From NCBI GenBank assembly GCA_964606385.1, contig CAZSFZ010000010.1, forward strand, positions 512 through 64,511: a DNA stretch of 64,000 nucleotides. The letters run 5' to 3'. Source of the stretch: an uncultured bacterium (GTDB taxonomy: Bacteria; Omnitrophota; Omnitrophia; Omnitrophales; Aquincolibacteriaceae). Position 1 is the first letter of the stretch. Each line of letters starts with the position of its first letter. The notes beneath the pieces are model-generated. The model did no database searches and was not told the origin of the DNA. It saw only the letters and a list, made by a program, of their open reading frames with translations. Positions 4,990 to 26,698 of the stretch are shown in pieces. Both the position numbers and the translations under genes were made by a program.

Positions 4990-6026
4990 CTAGGGTTTCA
5001 GAATGATCTTTCCGAAGTTTTCGCGGGAGAGCATGCGGTTCAGGGCTTGGCGCGCTTCCCTTAAAGGGAAAATCCGGTCGATCACGGGGCGCAACCGGCC
5101 GTCCTGGATACGCCGTACAATGCGGTGAAGTTCCTGGATCCCTCCCATGTAAGACCCCATAACAGAAAGCTGATGGGTGTAAAGGTAGCGGAGATCGAAG
5201 CTGACGGTACGGCCCGCGGTCGCTCCGCAGGTCACGATCCGGCCCTTTTTCTTAAGGCACAAAATGCTTTTTGTGAAAACTTCACCTCCGATATGTTCGA
5301 AAATAACGTCGACCCCTTCGCTTTGGGTGAGGCGCATCACCTCCGTTTGAAAATCCTTCAGTTTATAATTGATGACAAGATCCGCGCCGAGCGCTTTGGC
5401 CCGCTTGACCTTTTCTTCGCTTCCCACCGTAGTGATCACCCGGGCCCCCAGGAGTTTGGCGATCTGGATCGCCGCGCTGCCGATCCCGCTGCCCCCGGCA
5501 TGAATGAGCACCGTTTCTTTTTTTTGAAGGGAGGCGCGTGTGACGAGGATGTGCCAGGCGGTCAGGAACACGAGCGGGACCGCCGCCCAGGATTCCACGC
5601 CGAGTTTCCCCGGAACGGGAATAATGTTCCGCGCCGGGACCTTCACATATTCCGCGAAGCCCCCGTTATTCTGAAAACCCACGATCTCGTATTTCGGACA
5701 AAGACTGTCCCATCCCGACTTGCAGTAGGAACATTTCCCGCAGGAGATCCCGGGGGCGACGATCACGGGCTTATGGAGGGGAACCCCGTGAGCCTTTTTT
5801 CCTTTTTCGACGACTTCACCCGCGATATCGCAGCCCAGGATATGAGGCAGGCTGACCTTGACGCCGGGCATGCCCCCGAGCACCCACAGGTCCAAATGGT
5901 TCAGGGCGCAAGCCCCGACTTTGACCAGGGCATCTTTTTTCCCGATTTCGGGGATAGGGGCGTAAGTCTCTTCCAGTTCGGAAGTCGTACCGTGTTTTCT
6001 AAAAATAACAGCTTTCATTTTCGCCA
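4990..6026 (-). CDS. Zinc-dependent alcohol dehydrogenase / MDR-family oxidoreductase
   Basis: MAKMKAVIF...GACALNHLD...GHDIAGEV-like and GGSGIGSAAIQIAK Rossmann motifs. Start at ATG 6026 with an AAAGGA RBS. The ORF-track N-terminal extension is rejected. Confidence 0.85.
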
Positions 6027-6245
6027 TAAAAATTCCTTTGTTTGCGGAGTATACTTGAAATGCGAATCGAGGACAATGCTGATAGTCCCAATACCAACCA
6101 ATCGAAGCGAAGCTGAGATTGGGGCAATCCTGTCCTTGTCTTTTATTTTTTTGATTGAAGGTGACAAGGACTGTGCTGATTACCCGTATATTTTTAAATG
6201 GTTGAGAATCAGTGCTGACTTCCAATAGAGAAAAGAAAATAATAG

Positions 6246-6266
6246 TCAGGATGACAATTGTCCTGA
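6246..6266. promoter_or_regulatory. Operator-like palindrome TCAGGATGACAATTGTCCTGA (core GACAATTGTC) in the divergent adh/nth promoter region
   Basis: Perfect 10-bp palindrome inside a 270-bp divergent intergenic region, 35 bp upstream of the nth start. Confidence 0.3.
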
Positions 6267-6300
6267 ACGGGGGACCTTGTCTGTAGTATATTGTCGCTCT

Positions 6301-6966
6301 ATGAAGGAAACCTTGGAAGCCAGAAAAAAGAGGGTTCGGTCGATCTTCTGCCGTTTGCGCCGGGCTTATCCCGGTATCCAATGCGGCATTCATTTCTCGA
6401 CCCCTTGGGAATTACTGGTAGCCACCATCCTTTCCGCCCAGTGTACCGACAAGCTGGTCAATCAGGTGACGCCCGCTCTCTTCAAGAAATATCCCGATGC
6501 ACGGGCTTTTGCTGAAGCCGATCCCGGAGAAATTGAAAAAGCGATCCATAGCACCGGTTTTTACAGGAACAAGACCAAAAATATCCTCGGCGCGGCCCGG
6601 GAAGTTCTCGAGGGGTTCCAGGGTCAAGTTCCAGCCCGCATGGAGGATCTTGTGACGATCCCGGGAGTGGGTAGAAAAACGGCCAATGTGATCTTGGGGC
6701 ATGCGTTCGGCATACCCGGGATCTCGGTCGACACCCACATGATCCGTATCAACTTCCTTTTAGGTCTGACGCGCCACAAGGATCCCGTGAAGATCGAGTT
6801 CGACCTGATGCAGCTCGTGCCCCGCAGGAACTGGACGCTTTATTCAAGCCTTGTGATCCACCATGGCCGGGTCCGGTGTTTCGCACGAAGGCCCGATTGC
6901 GCCGGTTGCGAGATACGGGCCTATTGCCCTTATGGGAAGCGGCGGGTCGCGTCCGGGCGGGGATAG
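6301..6966 (+). CDS. nth: Endonuclease III (DNA glycosylase/AP lyase)
   Basis: HhH-GPD motif (IPGVGRKTANVIL) and a C-terminal 4Fe-4S Cys cluster CFARRPDCAGCEIRAYC. Confidence 0.9.
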   Translation: MKETLEARKKRVRSIFCRLRRAYPGIQCGIHFSTPWELLVATILSAQCTDKLVNQVTPALFKKYPDARAFAEADPGEIEKAIHSTGFYRNKTKNILGAAREVLEGFQGQVPARMEDLVTIPGVGRKTANVILGHAFGIPGISVDTHMIRINFLLGLTRHKDPVKIEFDLMQLVPRRNWTLYSSLVIHHGRVRCFARRPDCAGCEIRAYCPYGKRRVASGRG

Positions 6967-7036
6967 TTTTAAAGTTTACGCTCGGGGAATCCGAAACTTT
7001 AAGGAAGAGCGCATCACAGTATAAGAGAAAAGGGCT

Positions 7037-19988: not shown

Positions 19989-20609
19989 ATGAAAAATCAA
20001 AATCCAAAGATCAAAGCTGTGATCTTCGACCTCGGCAATGTGCTCGTGAATTATGATGTGAAGAAAGCCGCGCGCCGGTTCTCGGAAGCCGGGGGGATCT
20101 CCCAGCTTCGCATCTGGGCCCATTTTTTTCTTTCCAAGTTTGAACAGGCTTACACGCGCGGCGAGATCTCGACCCGGGAATTTTACCGGGAAGCGTGCCG
20201 CATTTTCAAAAAGCCTGTTTCCTACAAAACGTTCAAGCATTACTGGAACGACATCTTCTGGGAAAATCCGGGGATGGAAAAACTGCTGGTCCGGATTAAA
20301 AAGCATTATCCTCTCTACTTGATCTCAAACACGAACGCCCTCCATTACACGCATATCAAAAAAGAATTCAAGCTCCTCCGTCACTTCGCGCGGAAATTCC
20401 CGTCTCATGAGGTGGGGGCCCGTAAGCCGGACCTCAAGATCTACCGTCGGGTTCTGAAAAAGATCGGCCTTCGCCCCGAAGAGACCGTCTTTATCGATGA
20501 TATGAAAAGTTTCATCGAAGGCGCCCGCAAGGCCGGCATGCACGCGATCCGCTTCAAGGGCCGTCCGCGTCTTGTCAAAGATCTTCGTAATCTCGGGATT
20601 CGCTTCTGA
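19989..20609 (+). CDS. HAD-superfamily hydrolase (subfamily IA)
   Basis: AVIFDLGNVL motif I, LISNTN motif II, and K...FIDD motifs III/IV. Confidence 0.8.
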   Translation: MKNQNPKIKAVIFDLGNVLVNYDVKKAARRFSEAGGISQLRIWAHFFLSKFEQAYTRGEISTREFYREACRIFKKPVSYKTFKHYWNDIFWENPGMEKLLVRIKKHYPLYLISNTNALHYTHIKKEFKLLRHFARKFPSHEVGARKPDLKIYRRVLKKIGLRPEETVFIDDMKSFIEGARKAGMHAIRFKGRPRLVKDLRNLGIRF

Positions 20610-20872
20610 TCCTATTCGTATCCTCGTTTGAATCTGTTTGCATTCCACAAAATTGCTGACTGTTCTAGAAATTTTAAGAATCCGAACAAGGATTTGCTCT
20701 ATACAACCTATGAATATCCGGAGTTTGTTCCCACGGTAACAATCAGCTGGGGAGAGCTGGCAGCCCTTTAGCGAGGTCCGTTTGAGCCGATAAATATTGC
20801 GTGGTGGTTTGCGGTCATTCAAACGCTTAGTTTCAAAGCGGTTAGTTAACAAAATTTGGCTGGGTGAATAAG

Positions 20873-21241
20873 ATGCAAAAATGTCCATGGTGCGATTACG
20901 AATTCAGTCTTTTTAACTTTAGTTCACAATTCAGGATTAGTGGAGATCCTGGTCTTGGAACACGGAGGAAGCTTGATGCGCCTCTCAAAATCTTCTCATG
21001 TCCCGCTTGTGGCAAAAGCATCGAGAGAGAAACAGATACTGCAGCAACGAAATTAGCTGCTCGGACCGTAGCACCATTTTTGTTTCCAATCCCGCTCTTT
21101 GCATGGTTTTTTCTTGGTCCCGCCTATCATGTTGCCGAAGTAATTAAATGGCCTATTGTTATAATCCTGTCGTGTATTTGCATATATTTTTTTATGCGGA
21201 TTACGGATTACAAGGGACAGATTTTAAAAAAAGCAGAATAA
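20873..21241 (+). CDS. Small zinc-ribbon protein with C-terminal TM helices
   Basis: CPWC...CPAC plus two hydrophobic segments. Lies in a low-GC islet. Confidence 0.45.
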   Translation: MQKCPWCDYEFSLFNFSSQFRISGDPGLGTRRKLDAPLKIFSCPACGKSIERETDTAATKLAARTVAPFLFPIPLFAWFFLGPAYHVAEVIKWPIVIILSCICIYFFMRITDYKGQILKKAE

Positions 21242-21409
21242 TTCTGTCTTGCGTAAAAACGAATGGTAGCCCCAACATTGTTTGTCTAGACGCTTATATT
21301 GGATTGCCTCCGCGATATGCTCGGACTGGATCTGCTCCGAGCCGGCGAGGTTGCTGATCGTTCGGGCGATTTTGATTGTCTTGTAATCAGCCGCGACGGC
21401 ATATTCCAC
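21224..21409 (-). pseudogene. Remnant of a ComM/YifB-family Mg-chelatase-like ATPase (C-terminal about 35 aa only)
   Basis: IKIARTISNLAGSEQIQSEHIAEAIQYKRLD matches the conserved extreme C-terminus of YifB/ComM. No upstream ATPase domain is present. Confidence 0.55.
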
Positions 21410-21509
21410 GAATCAAAGCCCCTCCGCCTCTAGCGATGCCGCTATATTTAAAATGCTAATTTATCAATATTATATTGCTATAAATTAAATATTTTGTTAT
21501 CATCCAGGC

Positions 21510-22022
21510 ATGGCTATGGAAAAAATCAATATTCAAAAAATAGCCGCGTCTATCTTTTTGATCCGCGGCCAGAAGGTCATGCTGGATGCGGACCTGGCGG
21601 TTCTTTACGGCGTTGAGACTAAATATCTCAAGAGGCAGGTCAACCGGAATCTCGAACGATTTCCGCCGGATTTTATGTGGGCGCTGACCCAGAAAGAGAT
21701 TTCTAACTTGAGGTGCCAAATTGGCACCTCAAGTTGGGGCGGAACAAGGTACCGACCCTATGCTTTTTCGGAACATGGGATCTTGATGCTTTCAAGTGTT
21801 TTAAATAGCCCTAAAGCGATTCAAGTGAATATTTCGATCATGAGAGTATTCGCAAAGATCCGAAAAATTTTTGAGGAGCATAAAGATCTCGCGCTGCGGA
21901 TTGAAAGACTGGAACACTCCGCTGATAAACACGGGAGGCATATCCGCTCCATTTTTGCAATGCTTGAACGTCTCATGGCGATCAAAGAAAAACCCAAGCG
22001 TCAAATAGGGTTCCATCCTTAG
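21510..22022 (+). CDS. ORF6N-domain (KilA-N-like, antirepressor-type) protein
   Basis: IRGQKVMLDADLAVLYGVETKYLKRQVNRNLERFPPDFMW is the signature ORF6N region. Confidence 0.75.
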   Translation: MAMEKINIQKIAASIFLIRGQKVMLDADLAVLYGVETKYLKRQVNRNLERFPPDFMWALTQKEISNLRCQIGTSSWGGTRYRPYAFSEHGILMLSSVLNSPKAIQVNISIMRVFAKIRKIFEEHKDLALRIERLEHSADKHGRHIRSIFAMLERLMAIKEKPKRQIGFHP

Positions 22023-22036
22023 AGAGTATTTTTGTT

Positions 22037-22976: not shown

Positions 22977-23288
22977 ATGGCTTATGTTATTACTGAGAAG
23001 TGTCACGGCGAGCGTTATGGTCTTTGCGCGGGGGTTTGCCCGGTCGAGGCGATTTATCCCGGATCTTACCAGGGGAAGGATTTCATGGTGATTGATCCGG
23101 CGGTCTGCATTTCCTGCGGCGCCTGCGCGGCGGAATGCCCGGTGGGTTCGATCGTGGAATCCGAGGATATGGACCCGACCTATGCCAAGATCAACGCGGA
23201 CCTCGCGCCCCAGTTCAAGTCGAATCCCAAAGCGACGCCGCGTTCGAAGGACGAAGCCCCCAAAAAACCGGGGAACACGCTGAAATAA
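22977..23288 (+). CDS. 7Fe (3Fe-4S/4Fe-4S) ferredoxin, FdxA-like
   Basis: MAYVITEKCHGERYGLCAGVCPVEAI...CISCGACAAECPV. AAAGGAGA RBS. Confidence 0.9.
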   Translation: MAYVITEKCHGERYGLCAGVCPVEAIYPGSYQGKDFMVIDPAVCISCGACAAECPVGSIVESEDMDPTYAKINADLAPQFKSNPKATPRSKDEAPKKPGNTLK

Positions 23289-23376
23289 GTAAAAAACAAC
23301 AGCTCCATTTGCCCCCGTCACGGTGTCCCACAACGTGGCGGGGGCAATCTTGTCTTTGACCGATAAGGAATCCGAG

Positions 23377-23964
23377 ATGTCATCCGCTTCCGGTTGTAAG
23401 GATCCCGCCTTTGTGGAACAAGCTCTGAAGCAGTATGTTTCGGACCTTGCCCTCGAAAATACCGCCGTCAGGGTCGTCACACGGGGACTCTCGCTTGTGG
23501 GGGTCGGGATCCGTCCTCTCCTGGACCACATAATTTTCCGGACCGTTCATTTAAAAGAACGCGCGGTGGAATTTCTTGAAATGGGTTACGAAAGGGACCT
23601 CAGCGCCAAAGTCCTGGAGCACAAAGGGCACGGGGCGGAGGTGCTGCGCAAGGGATCCTGTCCCACGATCCTTGTCGAACACCCTCACGAAAAATCCGGG
23701 CTGGATTGGGTTGCGCACTTTGGCGATAAAAAACCTTACGCGCTGGCGCTTCGTGTGGATGATATCGAAGAGGCTATTTTCCGGTTGGAAATGCAGGCGG
23801 TAGGTTTTATGCGGCCTCCGGCGGGAAAACACGGGGAGACCCTCCGCGAGATCGCGACGCTTCCCGAAAAAAAAGAAGGCAAGAACGCGAGCCATCTCAT
23901 TCTTGTGGAGCGCCATTCCGGCGACGAACGTTTTTATGCTTCGGATTTTTGGGTCCGCTCTTAA
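23377..23964 (+). CDS. Hypothetical protein, possible VOC/glyoxalase-like fold (DUF1338-like?)
   Basis: AAGGAA RBS before ATG 23377. Weak VOC-like pattern only. Confidence 0.4.
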   Translation: MSSASGCKDPAFVEQALKQYVSDLALENTAVRVVTRGLSLVGVGIRPLLDHIIFRTVHLKERAVEFLEMGYERDLSAKVLEHKGHGAEVLRKGSCPTILVEHPHEKSGLDWVAHFGDKKPYALALRVDDIEEAIFRLEMQAVGFMRPPAGKHGETLREIATLPEKKEGKNASHLILVERHSGDERFYASDFWVRS

Positions 23965-23973
23965 AGGAATTCT

Positions 23974-24975
23974 ATGATCATCGGTCTGACGGGGAAAAAC
24001 GGGTCGGGAAAAGGGGAAGCCGCGACGTTTCTGAAAGACCGCGGGTTCCATTACTACTCACTTTCCGATGCGCTCCGCGAGGAAGCCAAGAAACGCGGTC
24101 AGGAGATCACCCGGGATGTCCTCGTCGTGCTTGGCAACGAATTGCGCGAAAAAGAAGGCCCCGGCTGTCTCGCGGAACGCATTTTCGCGAAGCTTGATCC
24201 GGAAAAAAATTATGTGATCGATTCCATTCGCCATCCTTCCGAGGTCCAGGTCTTCCGCCGCCGCAATGATTTTACGCTGATCCGCGTCCACGCCCCTGAA
24301 AGACTCCGTTTTGAACGCTTGAAACAGCGCGGCCGTGAAAATGATCCTAGGGTGTGGGAGGACTTTCAGGCGCTTGAAGCCAAAGAAGCCAAAAGCGCGA
24401 GCAAGACCGACCAGCAGCTGGACCAGACGATCGCCTCGGCGGACCTTCAGATCGACAATAACGGGCCGCTCAAAGAGATGCATGAAAAGGTCAAAACGGT
24501 CCTTTTGGAACTCGCGCAAAAAGCGCCGCGCCCCGGCTGGGATGAATATTTCATGAATATCGCCAAGGTCGTGGCCATGCGCGCCAACTGCATGAAACGG
24601 AAGATCGCCGCCGTGATCGTGAAGGACAAGCGGATCATCTCGACCGGTTATAACGGCACGCCGCGCGGGATCAAGAATTGCAGCGACGGCGGCTGCCCCC
24701 GCTGCAACGCGGTCGACGCGTCCGGAAAAGACCTGGGCGAATGCCTTTGTTCGCACGGGGAAGAGAACGCGATCGTGCAGGCGGCCTATCACGGCGTCAG
24801 CGTGAAGGGCGCCACGATCTACACGACTTTTTCTCCCTGCCTGATGTGCACCAAGATGATCATTAATTCCGGGATCGCCGAAGTGGTTTATCAGGGAAAT
24901 TATCCGTTCCTCGAGACCTCCCTCAAACTGCTGGAGCAAGCCGGCGTCACGGTCCGCAAGATCGCTTCTTCCTGA
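23974..24975 (+). CDS. Fusion protein: N-terminal P-loop nucleotide-kinase-like domain plus C-terminal dCMP/cytidine deaminase domain
   Basis: N-terminus IIGLTGKNGSGKGE (Walker A, CoaE/dNMP-kinase-like). C-terminus HGEENAI...SPCLMC zinc-binding deaminase motifs (ComEB/dCMP-deaminase-like). Confidence 0.75.
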   Translation: MIIGLTGKNGSGKGEAATFLKDRGFHYYSLSDALREEAKKRGQEITRDVLVVLGNELREKEGPGCLAERIFAKLDPEKNYVIDSIRHPSEVQVFRRRNDFTLIRVHAPERLRFERLKQRGRENDPRVWEDFQALEAKEAKSASKTDQQLDQTIASADLQIDNNGPLKEMHEKVKTVLLELAQKAPRPGWDEYFMNIAKVVAMRANCMKRKIAAVIVKDKRIISTGYNGTPRGIKNCSDGGCPRCNAVDASGKDLGECLCSHGEENAIVQAAYHGVSVKGATIYTTFSPCLMCTKMIINSGIAEVVYQGNYPFLETSLKLLEQAGVTVRKIASS

Positions 24976-24987
24976 ACCGGAGGTCCT

Positions 24988-26145
24988 ATGGCTGAAGAAG
25001 GAAAGACCTTCCGCGCAAGTTTCGGGCTCAAGGGGATCGTTCAGCATCAGCTCGACCAAAGTTATCACAGCCCTCTCATCGAAAAATTGCGTGCCGCGGG
25101 CTACGCGCTTAAGACCGGGCGCCTTGAGATCCATCTCGCCAGGGAATTCGGCTTCTGTTATGGGGTCGAGCGCGCTGTCGAATACGCCTATGAGACCCGC
25201 GCGCGCTTTCCCGATCGCCGCATTTTCCTCACCAACGAGATCATCCATAACCCGCGTGTGAATGCCGAGCTCCAGGGGATGGGCGTGAAGATCCTTGCCG
25301 ATGACGTTTCCCGCGCCGAGATCACCGAAAACGATGTTGTGATCATGCCGGCCTTCGGGGTGCCGGTGGAGGCGTTGCGCGAATTTCAGAAAAAAGGCTG
25401 CGTGATCGTGGATACGACCTGCGGGTCCGTGATGAGTGTGTGGCGCCGCGTGGAAGACTACAACAAGGACGGTTTTACTTCGGTGATCCACGGGCACTAC
25501 GCGCATGAGGAAACGCGCGCGACCTGTTCGCGGGCTTCCCAATACCTGGTGGTCCGGGATAAAGAGCAGGCGGAACATGTTTGCCGGTACATTCAAGGCA
25601 AGATGAAGCGGCAGGCTTTTCTTGAGGAATTCAAAGATGCCTGTTCGAAGGGTTTTGATCCGGACCGGGACCTCGGCAAGATCGGTTTTGCCAACCAGAC
25701 AACAATGCTCTCGCGCGAATCGACCGAGATCTCGGAAATGCTGCGCGGTGCCCTCCAATCCCGGTACGGTGCCGGCACGATCCCGGACCGTTTCCGCCAT
25801 TTCGACACGATTTGCTCGGCGACCCAGGACCGGCAGGACGCGATCCGTGTGCTCGGCGAAAAAAAACCGGATGTGATCCTCGTGATCGGAGGGTATAAAT
25901 CGAGCAATACGGGACACCTGGCCGAGATCGCCTCCAAATTCTGTCCCACCTACCATGTGGAAGACGCGACCTCGATCCTTTCGCGCGAAAAGATCCGTCA
26001 CAAAAAGATCGGGTCCCAGGAAGTGCTTGAGACAGCAGACTGGCTTCCGGGCGGGGAGATCCGGGTCGGCGTGACCGCGGGGGCATCCACCCCGAACCGG
26101 CTGGTTGAAGAAGTGATCCAGCGCCTCATTGATATCTCCGCTTAA
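24988..26145 (+). CDS. ispH: 4-hydroxy-3-methylbut-2-enyl diphosphate reductase IspH/LytB
   Basis: GFCYGVERAV and conserved Cys/His pattern. GGAGG RBS. Confidence 0.9.
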   Translation: MAEEGKTFRASFGLKGIVQHQLDQSYHSPLIEKLRAAGYALKTGRLEIHLAREFGFCYGVERAVEYAYETRARFPDRRIFLTNEIIHNPRVNAELQGMGVKILADDVSRAEITENDVVIMPAFGVPVEALREFQKKGCVIVDTTCGSVMSVWRRVEDYNKDGFTSVIHGHYAHEETRATCSRASQYLVVRDKEQAEHVCRYIQGKMKRQAFLEEFKDACSKGFDPDRDLGKIGFANQTTMLSRESTEISEMLRGALQSRYGAGTIPDRFRHFDTICSATQDRQDAIRVLGEKKPDVILVIGGYKSSNTGHLAEIASKFCPTYHVEDATSILSREKIRHKKIGSQEVLETADWLPGGEIRVGVTAGASTPNRLVEEVIQRLIDISA

Positions 26146-26152
26146 GATAGAA

Positions 26153-26698
26153 ATGAACTTTAAAGATCTGATCCAAAAGCGGCGGAGCGTCAGGAAATAT
26201 TCCGGTCGCCCCATCCCCAAAGACGACATCTTGAAATGCCTTGAGGCGGCGCGGCTTGCGCCGTCGGCGTGTAATTCCCAGCCGTGGCATTTCATTGTGA
26301 TCGATGATCCCGCCTTGAAGGACCGGGTGGCCGGCCGGATCTTCTCTGGGGTTTACTCCATGAATCAATTCGCCAAAGAGGCGCCGGTACTGATCGCCGT
26401 GGTGACGGAAAGATCGAAGTTTCTGGCTTCGTTCGGCGGGCAGGTCCGGGACACGAGCTACTGCCTGATCGATATCGGGATCGCCTGCGAACATTTAATC
26501 CTGCAGGCCGAAGAACTCGGGATCGGGAGCTGCTGGATCGGCTGGTTCGATGAGAAAGCCTTGAAAGAAGAATTGGGGATCGCCAAAAATAAAAAGATCG
26601 ATATTGTGATCCCATTGGGATATTCTGCGGAGGATAAGATTCTCCCCAAGACGAGGAAAACATTGGCCGAGGTCAGTTCTTTTAACAGGTATGAATAG
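26153..26698 (+). CDS. Nitroreductase-family protein
   Basis: RRSVRKY...APSACNSQPW motif. Confidence 0.8.
   Translation: MNFKDLIQKRRSVRKYSGRPIPKDDILKCLEAARLAPSACNSQPWHFIVIDDPALKDRVAGRIFSGVYSMNQFAKEAPVLIAVVTERSKFLASFGGQVRDTSYCLIDIGIACEHLILQAEELGIGSCWIGWFDEKALKEELGIAKNKKIDIVIPLGYSAEDKILPKTRKTLAEVSSFNRYE

Follow-up and report, generated by a model that had tools for sequence, protein, structure and literature searches.

Does a protein that joins a P-loop kinase-like domain to a zinc-dependent deoxycytidylate (dCMP) deaminase domain belong to phage defence or to ordinary nucleotide metabolism? This question is raised by a gene in a 64,000-nucleotide (nt) stretch of DNA from an uncultured bacterium of the Omnitrophota (assembly GCA_964606385.1, contig CAZSFZ010000010.1, positions 512 to 64,511 of the forward strand). 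The whole stretch is referred to here as the window, and its encoded kinase-deaminase as the window protein. The first-pass annotation had noted a resemblance to defence deaminases that deplete nucleotides on infection, and had offered a regulated housekeeping dCMP deaminase next to ispH as the alternative. The alternative is supported by synteny, by motifs and by the deaminase tree, and we consider it likely that the gene encodes a housekeeping, allosterically regulated dCMP deaminase that is vertically inherited in Candidatus Omnitrophota. From the sequence we infer the dCMP substrate, the allosteric control, the kinase activity and the substrate of the kinase.

Position of the gene and organization of its product

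The gene was described as lying 12 bp upstream of ispH, and this is borne out (LytB/IspH at 24988-26145). The orthologous position is held in relatives, in that ispH is found directly downstream in 27/27 Omnitrophota loci whose deaminase shares at least 66% identity with the window protein (66-94%), at an offset of +14 to +469 nt. These loci comprise 9 obtained from contig look-ups and 18 obtained from a scan of species-representative genomes. In the remaining loci, where deaminase identity falls below about 64%, ispH was found in 0/62.

The open reading frame (ORF) lies at the position first annotated, is complete and encodes 333 amino acids (aa). Its translation begins with MIIGLTGKNGSGKGE and contains both HGEENAI and SPCLMC, and an AAGGA motif resembling a ribosome-binding site (RBS) is located immediately 5' of the gene. 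The GC content of the gene (0.55-0.58) is the same as that of its flanks, in agreement with the earlier description of it as ordinary. An antisense ORF of 745 aa (24058-26295, reverse strand) runs across both the deaminase gene and ispH; it seems to be an artefact of high GC rather than a gene, and it misleads a simple longest-ORF caller. The features of the gene are as follows (NMP, nucleoside monophosphate).

23974-24975, forward strand: kinase-dCMP-deaminase gene, complete ORF, 333 aa
23974-24522, forward strand: P-loop NMP-kinase-like domain of the UPF0200/SSO1041 (AdkA-like) type, aa 1-183, from profile comparison and Foldseek
23983-24018, forward strand: Walker A motif or P-loop, G4-L-T-G-K-N-G-S-G-K13-G-E15, from conservation
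24307-24336, forward strand: Arg-rich segment R112-F-E-R115-L-K-Q-R119-G-R121, read as LID-like, from conservation and the SSO1041 alignment
24529-24972, forward strand: zinc-dependent dCMP deaminase domain, aa 186-333, from PF00383, phmmer and Foldseek
24646-24657, forward strand: allosteric-site signature G225-Y-N-G228, from conservation
24679-24750, forward strand: Cys-rich insert C236...C241-P-R-C244...C257-x-C259, putative structural zinc site, from conservation
24754-24762, forward strand: catalytic H261-G-E263 (HxE), predicted zinc ligand and proton shuttle, from the motif read in the sequence
24835-24849, forward strand: P288-C289-L-M-C292 (PCxxC), catalytic zinc ligands, from conservation

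Pfam analysis of both halves showed that the description as an N-terminal kinase domain fused to a C-terminal zinc-dependent dCMP deaminase domain was correct. AAA_18, AAA_17 and a weak, sub-threshold CoaE were matched by aa 1-130, and dCMP_cyt_deam_1 (PF00383) by aa 189-306 with an E-value of 2.6e-26 (91.9 bits against a cutoff of 25). The AlphaFold2 model of the protein has a mean predicted local distance difference test score (pLDDT) of 82.

The deaminase domain

In phmmer searches the C-terminal domain matched dCMP deaminases of S. mutans, cyanophage S-TIM5, T4, human and a chlorovirus. Foldseek aligned it with the solved dCMP deaminases 5C2O and 2HVW (S. mutans), 1VQ2 (T4), 4P9C (S-TIM5) and 2W4L (human DCTD), with E-values of 6.5e-13 to 7.3e-10 and template modelling (TM) scores, by target, of 0.65-0.87. 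These enzymes and B. subtilis ComEB are single-domain dCMP deaminases that share with the window protein the fold, the catalytic motifs and GYNG (28-34% identity in the Foldseek alignments), but, unlike it, have no kinase domain.

Conservation was analyzed in alignments of 22 Omnitrophota sequences and of 41 diverse family members, and in an alignment of the N-terminal domain (A4). In both the Omnitrophota and the 41-member alignments H261 and E263 vary little or not at all, and PCxxC is present in at least 90% of the sequences of each. G225 is found in all of the 41 members, and conservation of Y226 and G228 among them is at least 90%; G(Y/W)N(A/G) is the allosteric-site motif of dCMP deaminases (PMC12088426). 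C206 and the cysteines of the insert (C236, C241, C244, C257 and C259) are invariant in the Omnitrophota. A zinc-binding insert at this place is a feature of the family, in which a zinc-supported cap has been described for dCMP deaminases (PMC3239186), and the Cys-rich insert of the window protein is, by its sequence, a probable structural zinc site capping the active site. Its confidence in the AlphaFold2 model is low, as expected of a metal-free model. The GGCPRC...CxC form of the insert is common to fungal Dcd1-type enzymes and some standalone bacterial deaminases, whereas ComEB and its relatives do not have it and carry a His/Cys insert (VGHEM / HCAD-EGC) instead.

The kinase-like domain

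The profile of the N-terminal domain (A4) matched SSO1041 (3H0K/3LW7) with an E-value of 1.6e-31 over positions 2-179 of 182; the next-best matches were adenylate kinase 1 (AK1, 7e-9) and CoaE (3e-8). Foldseek gave a TM score of 0.83 against 3LW7 (0.82-0.84 for the SSO1041 structures). SSO1041, a UPF0200 member to which no function has been assigned, stands alone at about 178 aa, and its structures are PDB 3H0K and 3LW7, the latter with AMP. It aligns end to end with the N-terminal domain of the window protein, where a deaminase is instead joined to the module. Common to both are the P-loop, SD-x-x-R, LR-x-x-x-G, D-[GS]-[IV]-R-x-x-x-E, R-[FY]-x-R...R-x-R and ADxxIxN. A literature search on UPF0200/SSO1041 yielded no papers.

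In the P-loop, G4, G7, G12 and K13 are invariant among the 22 Omnitrophota sequences; among the 41 diverse members this holds for G7 and G12, with conservation of at least 90% for G4 and K13. The Walker A lysine is invariant or nearly so in all three family alignments, and the position that follows it is variable across the 41 members (T, D, G, E or S). The 'GKG' form of the P-loop is the one used by adenylate-type NMP kinases. The possibility that GKG in place of GK[ST] marks a dead P-loop was rejected, as the lysine and the arginines are conserved and the ratio of nonsynonymous to synonymous substitution rates (dN/dS) is as low as that of the deaminase domain.

The Arg-rich segment R112-R121 aligns with RYKRMIERLR of SSO1041, and we infer from this that it is LID-like. 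In the A4 alignment R119 is invariant, and R112, R115 and R121 are nearly so. Conservation among the 41 diverse members is at least 90% at K13, R58, E90, R112 and R115, and across the alignments K13, R35, R58, R86, E90, R112, R115 and R119 show little or no variation. We take the conserved Lys/Arg set to correspond to the P-loop lysine, the NMP-site arginines and the LID segment of adenylate kinase; the adenylate-kinase motifs mapped in this way were S-x-[GS]-D-x-L-R and D-G-F-P-R for the NMP site and R-x-x-x-R-G...R-x-D for the LID.

Comparison with four orthologues by the Nei-Gojobori method gave dN/dS values of 0.03-0.06 for the N-terminal domain and 0.02-0.05 for the C-terminal domain. The dS values in this comparison are high and partly saturated; even so, it is safe to conclude that both halves are strongly constrained by purifying selection. 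Judged by its conserved residues, the kinase half is not degenerate and retains a complete NMP-kinase-like site. According to the first-pass annotation, its reading would fall if the N-terminal domain were degenerate and the gene were universally linked to ispH in relatives, with a plain ComEB-like phylogeny. One half of this is borne out: synteny with ispH was found throughout the Omnitrophota clade, but the N-terminal domain is intact.

Fungal relatives and previous descriptions of the architecture

Among the closest known parallels to the window protein are fungal Dcd1-type proteins of Didymella/Ascochyta (P0228 and P0272), which their sources name dCMP deaminase and which are colinear with it over the full length. 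In BLASTP, residues 1-331 of the window protein aligned with 1-329 of P0228 with few gaps (35% identity, 186 bits). The GGCPRCN...C-x-C insert, GYNG, HxE and PCxxC are shared. The fungal N-terminal domain keeps GxxxxGKS but has lost SLSD-R, R58 and DSIR, all of which the Omnitrophota domain keeps. Yeast and fission-yeast Dcd1 is a housekeeping enzyme. Regarding the role of the Dcd1 N-terminal domain, a literature search found nothing directly relevant.

It is important to mention that the combination of a P-loop kinase with a deaminase has already been reported across bacteria, archaea and fungi (Hsueh et al., bioRxiv 10.1101/2021.03.31.437871). The earlier description of the fusion as 'non-canonical' was thus overstated, given this report, the fungal dCMP deaminases and the at least 596 genome stretches described below. 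The window protein is a new member on the housekeeping side of a known architecture.

Relationship to anti-phage dCTP deaminases

In order to compare the window protein with defence enzymes that act on deoxycytidine triphosphate (dCTP), we used a reference set of five plasmid-borne proteins that pass the NCBIfam model NF041025 (L010:3905-5404, L011:3731-5431, L012:3557-5089, L093:2665-4290 and L094:2758-4275). Four of them are annotated 'anti-phage dCTP deaminase', and the fifth is a 'deoxycytidylate deaminase' of an E. coli IncI plasmid. A neighbour-joining tree was built from 144 columns of the deaminase domain, with 100 bootstraps. All five defence proteins fall into one clade on a long branch (100% bootstrap). 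The window protein lies outside this clade and groups with orthologues from Omnitrophota and with a two-domain protein of an archaeon (Bilamarchaeaceae), and standalone deaminases and fungal Dcd1-type enzymes are nearby. An intermediate protein, P0200 (225 bits with NF041025 and 308 with the PADLOC dCTPase model), stands beside the defence clade. Because such intermediates are placed there, the tree suggests that the defence enzymes arose from the housekeeping kinase-deaminase family.

That the window protein is itself a DcdV-type anti-phage dCTP deaminase, inactive until phage takeover and then depleting dCTP, is a reading that we regard as very improbable. The resemblance on which it was based holds, and by profile comparison the homology is real in both domains: NF041025 matched the window protein with an E-value of 1.6e-45 and PADLOC dCTPase with 2.2e-59, and BLASTP aligned it with the E. 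coli IncI protein at 28% identity over 319 residues (89 bits, 21% gaps; 25-28% identity to the defence proteins). However, the window protein reaches 155.8 bits with NF041025, where the curated cutoff is 400 and the five references score 421-504 bits, and its PADLOC score is 200 against 527-604 bits. The PADLOC model also matches plain B. subtilis ComEB (93 bits, E 5e-27) and an archaeal orthologue, P0121 (E 1e-72). The fungal dCMP deaminase, at 186 bits, is closer to the window protein than the defence enzyme is. Moreover, the P-loop-kinase-like N-terminal domain and zinc deaminase C-terminal domain are common to the defence and housekeeping families, and the two-domain plan is therefore non-discriminating. 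What separates the two is the length (499-566 aa in the defence proteins against 333 aa, a difference of about 170-230 aa, with N- and C-terminal extensions in the defence proteins), the insertions of about 15 and about 40 residues ahead of HAE, which the window protein does not have, and the allosteric motif, G[RTCA]N[DE] in all five defence proteins where the window protein keeps GYNG. The genes also differ in their surroundings: the defence genes adjoin relaxase or insertion sequence (IS) genes, one of them also Cas3, and two (E. coli and Photobacterium) have an ORF of 171-186 bp just upstream, whereas the window gene occupies a conserved core-genome position with an upstream gap of 9 nt, too short to accommodate a DifV-like RNA or a small ORF. 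With score, clade, length, GYNG and synteny all contrary to it, the defence reading was rejected.

The five defence proteins lack the canonical GxxxxGK[ST] register (GSGVKT, GAGSGT and GTELTA are found in its place), which the window protein retains as GxxxxGK. The P-loop domain of these five may serve to bind nucleotides and not to catalyse a phosphotransfer. A literature search for a structure of the defence enzyme found nothing directly relevant.

The comparison has a practical side. A core metabolic gene present in hundreds of species-representative genomes is strongly matched by the PADLOC dCTPase model (E 2e-59), and surveys of defence genes in uncultured phyla or metagenome-assembled genomes (MAGs) could miscount it as an anti-phage dCTP deaminase. 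We searched the literature for reports of false 'dCTPdeaminase' calls from these phyla and retrieved nothing that bears directly on the matter. GYNG, protein length, the NF041025 cutoff and the conserved position cleanly separate housekeeping from defence proteins.

Proposed function of the two domains

In the reading that we favour, a housekeeping dCMP deaminase, the C-terminal domain (EC 3.5.4.12 type) would convert dCMP to deoxyuridine monophosphate (dUMP) for thymidylate synthesis, and the classic allosteric site, with dCTP as activator and thymidine triphosphate (dTTP) as inhibitor, is probably kept. As its likeliest role, the kinase domain would carry out a reversible phosphotransfer on deoxycytidine nucleotides (dCDP + ADP <-> dCMP + ATP). 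The irreversible deamination would pull the product of ribonucleotide reductase into dUMP, and the enzyme would stand at the branch point between dCTP and dTTP. Within this model, interconversion of dCDP and dCMP by the kinase domain, feeding the deamination, is a tentative element to which we give somewhat less than an even chance.

A number of observations weigh against this reading. The predicted template modelling score (pTM) of the AlphaFold2 model is 0.54, so that the orientation of the domains is uncertain and substrate channelling has no structural backing. The window protein scores under the cutoffs of the named equivalogs, with 119.1 bits against 219.45 for ComEB (TIGR02571) and 68.8 against 189 for NCBIfam PRK08356, and therefore falls in no named equivalog; it is a member of the superfamily but not ComEB sensu stricto. 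The true defence dCTP deaminases have the same two-domain plan, and from the sequence the use of dCTP is conceivable. Additionally, we know of no biochemistry for any bacterial member of the subfamily.

The role of the N-terminal domain admits further explanations. The enzyme could be a housekeeping dCMP deaminase whose P-loop domain is a non-catalytic, nucleotide-binding module for regulation or oligomerisation, for instance one that senses ATP or a deoxynucleoside triphosphate. The motifs lost from the fungal N-terminal domain fit this view, since proteins named dCMP deaminase have lost them and the deaminase can therefore work without a complete kinase site; so do the five defence relatives, which have lost the Walker A lysine register yet retain the domain, the requirement of DcdV for its N-terminal domain for activity (bioRxiv 10.1101/2021.03.31.437871), and the variable residue after the Walker A lysine. 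We nevertheless hold a non-catalytic domain to be unlikely, as K13, R35, R58, R86, E90, R112, R115 and R119 are all kept in bacteria and archaea, dN/dS of the domain equals that of the catalytic deaminase domain, and the deaminase domain still carries GYNG, so that an extra sensor is not obviously needed. The name 'dephospho-CoA kinase', given to homologues by their sources, would imply a CoaE joined by chance to a deaminase, and this we consider extremely improbable. There are weak matches to Pfam PF01121 (23.8 bits) and TIGR00152 (24.7 bits), but neither reaches its curated cutoff (27 and 65.55, respectively), which leaves the database name unsupported, and they cover aa 1-89 only. UPF0200/SSO1041 matches about 23 orders of magnitude better than CoaE, adenylate kinases match the N-domain profile as well as CoaE does, and the fact that the fusion has been kept across many phyla, and also in fungi, speaks for a common nucleotide function.

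A bolder extension of the favoured dCMP deaminase reading is that the protein is bifunctional, generating dCMP from dCDP (or dCTP) by reverse phosphotransfer and then deaminating it on the same polypeptide. Such an enzyme would give Omnitrophota, Acidobacteriota, DPANN archaea and others a main route to dUMP that has not been described, and would be the ancestral scaffold of the DcdV-type enzymes, which would have been derived by loss of the Walker A register and GYNG and by gain of insertions. We regard this extension as doubtful. The prokaryotic family is large, highly conserved and uncharacterised. The role of the kinase domain could explain the supply of dCMP in bacteria that depend on dCMP deaminase, and could assign a function to the orphan archaeal UPF0200 family.

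Distribution of the family

An identical copy of the window protein was looked for in a contig index and was not found. Its 120 nearest database homologues all have lengths of 331-368 aa and identities of 68-92%, and those that are named are mostly Candidatus Omnitrophota. HMMER searches against 1.84 billion cluster representatives gave 22,539 matches at E <=0.001 and 695 at E <=1e-30, including dozens of full-length representatives of 320-370 aa with 35-59% identity. A scan of species-representative genomes with an eight-sequence alignment detected at least 596 related stretches. Locus-level comparisons were made for the best 80 of these, which encode full-length proteins of 55-94% identity. 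Among the best 80 loci, full-length relatives of 55-64% identity were found in Acidobacteriota/Terriglobia, Gemmatimonadota, Elusimicrobia, Planctomycetota, Armatimonadetes, Myxococcota, a Melainabacteria-like genome and Micrarchaeota/DPANN.

Clustering of the flanking ORFs of the 80 loci showed lineage-specific neighbours only, and no partner (e.g. thyA/thyX, dut or tmk) conserved across phyla; the ORF caller used for this clustering was crude and missed some true genes. Neighbours in other phyla that were checked with Pfam include an SppA-type peptidase, a polyprenyl synthetase, a methionyl-tRNA formyltransferase-like protein, an IF-2/eIF5B-type translation GTPase, an acyl-CoA dehydrogenase and CYTH. 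The sole defence-looking neighbour was one upstream HEPN gene. Distribution and neighbours show the pattern of a standalone housekeeping enzyme, not that of a defence-island gene.

Eight DPANN/Micrarchaeota MAGs (L052, L061, L070, L071, L080, L084, L088 and L089) encode full-length proteins of 57-60% identity, with the match at about 6001-6993 in most of these loci. This identity is as close as that of many bacterial phyla, which suggests inter-domain transfer or contaminated bins. In about five Acidobacteriota-type loci (deaminase 58-62% identical) a CYTH (triphosphate tunnel metalloenzyme) gene lies directly downstream, identified by Pfam in L040:7054-7623 and, in the other four, by BLAST grouping with L040; it may be a link to nucleotide metabolism.

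Genomic neighbourhood in the window

The kinase-deaminase gene is the third of four co-oriented genes (22977-26145) separated by gaps of 34, 9 and 12 nt. The other three are listed below.

22977-23288, forward strand: 4Fe-4S ferredoxin gene, first of the cluster, from Pfam Fer4 families; same position in Omnitrophota relatives
23323-23964, forward strand: conserved ORF of 213 aa, function unknown, ending 9 nt before the deaminase gene
24988-26145, forward strand: ispH (LytB) with a GGAGG RBS, PF02401 E 9.6e-74, 12 nt downstream of the deaminase gene

The 213-aa ORF matched no Pfam family and no PDB sequence. In most Omnitrophota loci it precedes the deaminase gene, usually without a gene in between, with 37-80% identity. 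Most of the 27 loci also keep the upstream series HAD - HtpX (M48) - ferredoxin - unknown protein (about 200 aa) in this order. The ferredoxin - unknown - deaminase - ispH cluster looks like a lineage-specific operon organization. IspH needs a low-potential electron donor, and the functional link within the cluster, if there is any, is probably that of the ferredoxin to IspH, whose dedicated reductant it may be.

IspH is present here in a long form of 385 aa, with the LytB domain starting at residue 48; relatives have 397-457 aa, and the length of the N-terminal extension varies among them. In three loci with a deaminase of 61-62% identity a polyprenyl synthetase gene, again of the isoprenoid pathway, is located downstream instead of ispH (checked with Pfam in an Omnitrophica MAG, L032:7008-7997).

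Further upstream in the window, about 1.4 kb at 20500-22030 has a GC content of 0.43-0.44, against 0.55-0.58 around it. This stretch contains an ORF for a Cys-rich hydrophobic protein of 125 aa (20864-21241) and an ORF with an ORF6N domain (21510-22022), and is flanked by the genes for the HAD hydrolase and HtpX. Since these two genes are almost adjacent in the relatives L001 and L017, the stretch has the look of a small insertion of foreign DNA.

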